A stretch of DNA of 64,000 nucleotides, taken from the NCBI RefSeq assembly GCF_011045215.1, contig NZ_CP049201.1; one strand, written 5' to 3'. The notes beneath the pieces were generated by a model that was not told where the DNA came from, made no database searches, and saw only the letters and a program-made list of their open reading frames with translations. Both the position numbers and the translations under genes were made by a program. Source of the DNA: Escherichia coli. Its GTDB lineage: Bacteria; Pseudomonadota; Gammaproteobacteria; Enterobacterales; Enterobacteriaceae. Each line of letters begins with the position of its first letter. Positions within the stretch are counted from its first letter, which is position 1. Positions 61,419 to 61,975 of this stretch are shown here, piece by piece.

Positions 61419-61436
61419 TGTGAGAGATCTCTTACA
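61419..61436. promoter_or_regulatory. UvrY (SirA) response-regulator box upstream of csrB
   Basis: 18-bp near-perfect palindrome TGTGAGAGATCTCTTACA about 175 bp upstream of the csrB 5' end. Confidence 0.6.
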
Positions 61437-61609
61437 GACTCTGTAGGAGATCGCCAGGAAATAAGCGAATACTTAAAAAGATAAGAATCGTTATTTTCAT
61501 TTAAAAACAACATGTTGCTTGTTAATTCCTAACTTTCATATGAAATTTTCCTTAAGGCATTGTCTGTAAGCGCCTTGTAAGACTTCGCGAAAAAGACGAT
61601 TCTATCTTC

Positions 61610-61975
61610 GTCGACAGGGAGTCAGACAACGAAGTGAACATCAGGATGATGACACTTCTGAAGGACACACCAGGATGGTGTTTCAGGGAAAGGCTTCTGG
61701 ATGAAGCGAAGAGGATGACGCAGGACGCGTTAAAGGACACCTCCAGGATGGAGAATGAGAACCGGTCAGGATGATTCGGTGGGTCAGGAAGGCCAGGGAC
61801 ACTTCAGGATGAAGTATCACATCGGGGTGGTGTGAGCAGGAAGCAATAGTTCAGGATGAACGATTGGCCGCAAGGCCAGAGGAAAAGTTGTCAAGGATGA
61901 GCAGGGAGCAACAAATGTAGCTGGAATGCTGCGAAACGAACCGGGAGCACTGTGAATACAGTGCTCCCTTTTTTT
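61610..61975 (+). ncRNA. csrB: CsrB regulatory RNA (CsrA-sequestering)
   Basis: Begins GTCGACAGGGAGTCAGACAACGAAGTGAAC; about 366 nt with many CAGGATG / AGGA repeats; ends in hairpin GGGAGCACTGTGAATACAGTGCTCCC plus T7; no long ORF. Confidence 0.9.

Follow-up and report, generated by a model that had tools for sequence, protein, structure and literature searches.

An ordinary csrB gene with its distal UvrY-type inverted repeat between syd and yqcC in an Escherichia coli genome

In Escherichia coli K-12, the distal activator site of csrB was described by Zere et al. (2015, PMC4682653) as "TGTGAGAGATCTCTTACA ... centered at -183/-182 in E. coli". Binding of phosphorylated UvrY (UvrY-P) to this 18-bp repeat in K-12 was demonstrated by ChIP-exo, ChIP-PCR, and DNase I footprinting; in ChIP-exo no genomic target of UvrY was stronger than the repeat, in DNase I footprints UvrY protected no other region, and binding in vivo needed BarA (PMC4682653). 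The same study found that IHF is needed for optimal UvrY binding and csrB activation, with CsrB dropping roughly 10-fold without IHF, placed a putative IHF site between two UvrY crosslinking regions, and proposed that IHF repositions the distal activator towards RNA polymerase. The csrB repeat of Salmonella, known as the SirA site, is centred at -182/-181 (PMC4682653). As for the RNA, the sequestration of multiple CsrA dimers by K-12 CsrB is established experimentally (summarised in PMC5027483), and Vakulskas et al. (2016, PMC5027483) numbered 22 GGA sites on the 369-nt CsrB and found the +226 CsrB fragment cleaved at A327 and A331. Two related systems share this architecture. E. coli CsrC is likewise a CsrA-sequestering RNA activated by UvrY via a distal inverted repeat, but its repeat, TGTGAGACATTGCCGATA, is weaker and its activation does not depend on IHF (PMC4682653). 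Pseudomonas RsmY and RsmZ, with their GacA box, follow the same logic of a FixJ-family response regulator, an upstream TGTAAG...CTTACA-type palindrome, and a GGA-rich decoy RNA, but are far shorter and are classed in Rfam families of their own. According to Zere et al. (PMC4682653), who cite Humair et al. 2010, IHF also binds the P. fluorescens rsmZ promoter, and pseudomonads have no CsrD orthologue (PMC5027483).

We analysed a 64-kb stretch of E. coli DNA (the window) and conclude, with near certainty, that it carries between syd and yqcC an ordinary, well-characterised csrB gene encoding a 369-nt untranslated CsrA decoy RNA (Table 1). The locus, its UvrY site, and its mechanism have already been worked out experimentally in K-12, and no new biology is involved. 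None of our results speaks against this identification. The Rfam CsrB/RsmB model RF00018 matched 61619-61978 (+) with 384 bits against a gathering score of 71 (E = 1e-111), untruncated over model positions 1-356 of 356. Positions 61380-62020 (641 bp) aligned with E. coli K-12 MG1655 free of gaps at 98.9% identity, with seven substitutions, and the same 641 bp were 100% identical in E. coli strain A30. The curated MG1655 record holds at the orthologous position the ncRNA csrB (b4408, "small regulatory RNA CsrB", NC_000913.3 2924156-2924524 complement) with yqcC and syd on either side; the gene order syd-csrB-yqcC is thus common to both genomes, and the ends of csrB given here are those of b4408 carried over through the gap-free alignment. 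Both genes are 369 nt long with 22 GGA motifs, and they are identical in the UvrY repeat, the adjacent half-site, the promoter blocks, the RNase E cleavage segment, and the terminator loop. The original prediction, made from the sequence alone, had placed a CsrB sRNA of roughly 366 noncoding nucleotides between syd and yqcC and named an Rfam CsrB match as its check; the full-length RF00018 match and the position of b4408 bear it out, its stretch corresponding to 61610-61975 within the 369 nt that map from K-12. It was also right that this is not a CRISPR array, the repeats being 5- to 7-nt motifs within an RNA of known family.

Table 1. Features of the csrB locus, in positions of the window
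Feature	Coordinates	Strand	Basis
syd (SecY-interacting protein), upstream neighbour	60854-61399	+	ORF and RefSeq annotation
18-bp near-perfect inverted repeat TGTGAGAGATCTCTTACA, UvrY-P (BarA/UvrY) site	61419-61436	.	Exact match; identity to footprinted site
Extra half-site TGTAGGAGA(TCGCC), partly conserved, 5 bp 3' of the inverted repeat	61442-61455	+	Zere et al. 2015 (PMC4682653); alignment
IHF-like site, consensus WATCAANNNNTTR, -105 to -93	61505-61517	+	Consensus matching; conserved block
Probable core promoter: TTGTAA -35 (61575-61580), 17-bp spacer, GATTCT at -12 to -7 (61598-61603)	61575-61603	+	Conserved blocks; annotated start
csrB	61610-61978	+	Rfam RF00018, b4408 mapping, MFE z-score, stem covariation, GGA counts and loop placement
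Unstructured segment GAAACGAACC, equivalent of the "necessary cleavage site" for RNase E	61933-61942	+	Mapped from Vakulskas et al. 2016
Intrinsic terminator, 11-bp stem with 4-nt loop (61943-61968), then a run of seven T	61943-61975	+	Terminator scan; covariation
yqcC (DUF446), downstream neighbour	62021-62350	+	ORF and RefSeq annotation

CsrB and CsrC have in common a GGA-rich architecture, UvrY-dependent promoters, and Rfam clan CL00106, and the RNA could on these grounds be another member of the Csr/Rsm clan, such as a CsrC-type paralogue. We regard this as exceedingly improbable: with cmscan keeping the best match where clan members overlap, the best clan match was CsrB, with 384 bits across the entire model; the locus shares both its gene neighbourhood and 98.9% sequence identity with K-12 csrB; and Zere et al. 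(PMC4682653) give for csrC an inverted repeat that differs from the one found here, the csrC locus itself lying outside the window. Synteny and the full-length match to the CsrB model together refute a CsrC-type paralogue.

By BLAST, the csrB locus was found in 5425 of 5426 complete E. coli genomes. Contiguous matches covering at least 80% of the locus were absent from 22 of these 5425 genomes, and one genome has a copy of the locus on a record labelled as a plasmid. In E. coli MARGA_3 (NZ_CM170101.1, 3825-5100), a transposase of the IS3 family interrupts csrB near nt 94 of the RNA, so that the gene is naturally disrupted.

The RNA strand of csrB holds 22 GGA, 14 AGGA, 9 CAGGA, 8 AGGATG, and 6 CAGGATG motifs; the opposite strand has 2 GGA and none of the longer forms. 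In plus-strand tiles of the same length elsewhere in the window, GGA averages 4.5 (maximum, 13) and AGGATG 0.10 (maximum, 1), and dinucleotide shuffles of the RNA itself yield 0.35 AGGATG (maximum, 4) against the 8 observed. The total of 22 GGA is that of MG1655 csrB and of the numbered sites of Vakulskas et al. (PMC5027483). When the Rfam consensus structure was projected on the window, hairpin loops held 11 of the 21 aligned GGA and single-stranded linkers 8; the other 2 fell in stems, including one in the terminator; the 22nd, at 61618, lies in the 9 nt 5' of the Rfam model start. In the thermodynamic ensemble, the probability of being unpaired was 0.9 or more for most GGA, and the predicted fold of -120.1 kcal/mol compares with a shuffle mean of -97.0 (z = -5.65), none of 100 shuffles being as good. 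The terminator stem has 7 G-C pairs among its 11 bp and is followed by TTTTTTT at 61969-61975. Three further points of the original prediction can be read off directly from these data: the many CAGGATG and AGGA motifs; the strong intrinsic terminator; and, for the proposed count of GGA in hairpin loops, the 11 of 21 given above.

The 3' determinants of decay are also present in the sequence. GGA sites 20 and 21 correspond to positions 61905 and 61923, and the unstructured segment lies between site 21, the last free GGA, and the terminator. This segment is identical in MG1655 and nearly invariant in 19 enteric sequences, and the cleaved residues A327 and A331 of CsrB fall at 61936 and 61940 of the window.

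We then considered the RNA in an alignment of the window csrB with 18 enteric orthologues (19 enteric genera). RNAalifold recovered eight helices in which invariant GGA motifs occupy loops and the stems vary by compensatory change. Changes altering both sides of a pair occurred in 19 of 39 pairs, including 6 of the 11 pairs of the terminator stem, and 96.1% of pair cells were paired, versus 35-52% when the partners were slid by 1-3 columns. None of 500 shuffles reached any of five covariation measures; this shuffle control ignores relatedness, and the slide control, which corrects for it, agrees. The CsrB/RsmB genes of Salmonella and other Enterobacterales have the 18-bp repeat, the GGA hairpins, and the terminator in common with the window, and in most genera the same spacing from repeat to RNA; they differ in the sequence between the conserved hairpins, which diverges, and in length, from 311 to 391 nt.

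The same alignment bears on whether the GGA-rich stretch could instead code for a small protein, its motifs being codon or peptide repeats. Either strand of the csrB region has listed ORFs of 43-71 aa, among them a 46-aa GTG-initiated ORF at 61634-61774 (+) that is intact in E. albertii. However, across the 18 other genera, the length of this segment differs by a number not divisible by 3 in 9 and premature in-frame stops occur in 10, E. albertii being the only one in which the frame is unchanged, and the substitutions in csrB obey base pairing, as the 19 pairs with compensatory change attest. As a gene, the 46-aa ORF is rejected, since it is frame-shifted or stop-interrupted in most orthologues, and we consider a coding role to have next to no chance of being correct. 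From the stem covariation and the lack of conservation of this frame, it follows therefore that the csrB region is a structured noncoding RNA under selection for GGA-presenting hairpins.

Upstream of the RNA, the inverted repeat differs from its reverse complement at 2 of 18 positions, with 8 of 9 arm positions pairing. It is the sole site within 3 mismatches on both strands of the 64-kb window, where dinucleotide shuffles would lead one to expect 0.02. With +1 at 61610, its centre lies at -183/-182, and its near edge at 61436 is 174 bp from the start; the DNA from 61380 to 61506, including the repeat, is identical to K-12. The near-perfect palindrome that had been noticed about 175 bp upstream and assigned to the type bound by BarA/UvrY is thus present, at essentially that distance, and is in sequence and position the UvrY-P site of Zere et al. 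(2015, PMC4682653).

To place the repeat in a wider context, we scanned one genome per species with the pattern TGTNAGAGATCTCTNACA, which returned at least 120 loci, almost all in Gammaproteobacteria. Since the loci were gathered by the repeat itself, its invariance among them is given by construction, and independent observations are limited to its spacing, the half-site next to it, and the CsrB nearby. By Rfam, a full-length CsrB stood beside the repeat in all 18 enteric loci. The distance from the repeat centre to Rfam model position 1 was 188.5-192.5 nt in 11 of these 18 loci and 191.5 nt in the window, and it departed from this range in Pectobacterium, Brenneria, Mixta, Erwinia, Dickeya, and Edwardsiella (172 to 234 nt). 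Over all repeat sites, 97 of 124 were flanked on one side by 400 nt containing 12 or more GGA; the background had a mean of 4.7 and a 95th percentile of 10.

This spacing is also what speaks to the idea that the palindrome is the terminator of syd, or a chance palindrome that contains a BglII site (AGATCT), and not a regulator site. The palindrome begins about 20 nt past the syd stop and could form an RNA hairpin. Nevertheless, it has no following T-run and was not reported by the terminator scan, on which grounds we rejected it as a syd terminator; its distance to CsrB is nearly constant across 18 enteric genera regardless of the upstream gene; it also adjoins GGA-dense RNAs in Vibrio, Photobacterium, and Shewanella; and in K-12 it is footprinted by UvrY-P in vitro and crosslinked in vivo (PMC4682653). 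We judge a terminator or an incidental palindrome very unlikely, and the repeat is treated below as the UvrY site.

Outside the enteric bacteria, Rfam was run on 17 repeat loci, and the CsrB threshold was reached only at the Vibrio and Photobacterium loci, the remaining ones being judged by GGA density only. Shewanella morhuae, Shewanella atlantica, Vibrio breoganii chromosome 2, and a Psychrobium MAG each have an exact UvrY/GacA-type box with 15-22 GGA per 300 nt and no Rfam family at its gathering score; these loci probably encode decoy RNAs of the Csr type, to which the Rfam CsrB model is not sensitive enough. In Vreelandella, Alcanivorax, Salinicola, Amphritea, and Kangiellaceae, the same 18-bp box occurs with just 3-11 GGA nearby and no Rfam match, and these boxes could mark targets encoding short Rsm-like RNAs, something else, or chance matches.

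Between the repeat and the RNA, four further blocks, none of them part of the search pattern, are conserved. The half-site next to the repeat is kept as TGT[AG][GA]GA.AT.GCC in 14 enteric sequences and extends to TGTAGGAGATCGCC. In the upstream alignment of 14 genera, a block [AT][TA]CA-N4/5-TT[AG] at -105 to -93 is conserved and fits the IHF consensus WATCAANNNNTTR; it falls between the two UvrY crosslinking regions, the interval to which Zere et al. (PMC4682653) assign a putative IHF site. It reads AAACAACATGTTG in the window and AATCAAAATGTTG in MG1655, and its coordinates were assigned here by consensus matching and not from the figure of Zere et al. Closer to the start, CTTGTAAGAC at -36 to -27 and GATTCTAT at -12 to -5 are conserved across 14 enteric genera. 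Judging from the annotated start and this cross-genus conservation, TTGTAA and GATTCT are the probable hexamers of a weak core promoter. A sigma-70 consensus scan of 61350-62060 returned no promoter, the two hexamers matching the consensus weakly, as is expected of a promoter that depends on an activator.

A second inverted repeat, GACGA-N8-TCGTC at 61595-61612, spans the -10 region and the csrB start and was flagged by the scan as a terminator-like element on the minus strand. It falls within the promoter-proximal UvrY crosslinking region of Zere et al. (-56 to +25; PMC4682653). Its arms are not complementary in Citrobacter and in more distant genera, and it was set aside as probably incidental.

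The seven substitutions relative to K-12 comprise three in the RNA (3 of 369 positions) and four clustered at -103 to -81. Within the RNA, 61661, just 5' of GGA site 3, is A in the window, as in the Rfam consensus, and C in K-12; 61916 is T in place of A, in an unpaired linker whose column varies between genera; and 61949 is A in place of G, so that the terminator stem has an A-U pair where K-12 has G-U. The four upstream substitutions (61507, 61511, 61518, and 61529) all lie in the IHF-like AT-rich stretch, and the first of them changes the IHF-like core from ATCAA in K-12 to AACAA, one core position off the consensus. In a comparison of six E. coli alleles and E. albertii, most differences within the control region fell in this stretch, with a few scattered single-base differences elsewhere, and the repeat, the half-site, GATTCTAT, and the csrB start never vary. 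Of 5425 E. coli genomes, 442 (about 8%), O157:H7 strains among them, carry exactly the 61470-61570 allele of the window, and an A at the same T position of the IHF core is also found in Pluralibacter and in one Enterobacter. The clustered allele with AACAA could weaken IHF-assisted csrB activation and give the lineage a different Csr set-point, an effect we think unlikely. These clustered substitutions most likely represent neutral variation or drift in the spacer, because the A recurs in other genera and no other part of the control region is as polymorphic.

Altogether, the near-identity of this locus to its K-12 counterpart allows the mechanism described there to be proposed for it. Family membership, orthology and synteny, the number and placement of motifs, stem covariation, the spacing from repeat to RNA, and the lack of a conserved ORF were computed here; UvrY-P binding, the dependence on IHF, CsrA sequestration, and the CsrD/RNase E pathway come from the literature on the K-12 locus. 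In this model, BarA would sense acetate, formate, and other carboxylates and phosphorylate UvrY, and UvrY-P would bind the 18-bp repeat about 183 bp 5' of the csrB start. A bend that IHF induces in the AT-rich DNA separating the repeat from the weak promoter may bring UvrY within reach of RNA polymerase, and the resulting transcript would end at the strong intrinsic terminator. Each CsrB molecule would then hold many CsrA dimers away from their lower-affinity mRNA targets, because each GGA motif offers a binding site for one face of a CsrA dimer, and this titration would relieve the CsrA-mediated control of translation and mRNA stability. Decay of CsrB would start with RNase E cleavage in the unstructured stretch just 5' of the terminator; CsrA bound to GGA sites 20 and 21, the last two free sites, would block this cleavage, and CsrD would overcome the block when EIIA-Glc signals that glucose is present. 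The elements of this model that lie in the window, namely the repeat, GGA sites 20 and 21, and the cleavage segment, are identical to K-12, and UvrY, CsrA, CsrD, and IHF are encoded outside the window. In K-12, barA, the gene for the kinase that activates csrB via UvrY, is 6.3 kb from csrB, with relA beyond it, past rlmD (NC_000913.3 2911417-2917813); barA and relA would fall just outside the window, past its right end.

Rfam also detected other RNAs in the window. GcvB lies at 43233-43438 (-) with 199 bits, and directly downstream on the same strand is a full-length match to STnc490 (43099-43222, 146 bits). The OmrA/OmrB sRNA genes stand in tandem at 9174-9458 (+) with 86 and 97 bits, a tRNA gene lies at 37963-38036 (-), and a short match to ES036 (CssrF) occurs at 39464-39506 (+) with 46.5 bits against a threshold of 37.6.

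In the E. coli RefSeq records annotated by the PGAP pipeline that we inspected, the gap between syd and yqcC is without any feature, csrB being annotated only in the curated MG1655 record. Although well known, csrB is thus easily missed by automatic annotation. CsrA acts globally at the post-transcriptional level on carbon metabolism, biofilm formation, motility, and virulence, and CsrB is its chief antagonist; the correct annotation of csrB matters for this reason. The value of the present case is that of a positive control, in which a structured noncoding RNA gene and its distal activator site were recognised from raw sequence alone.
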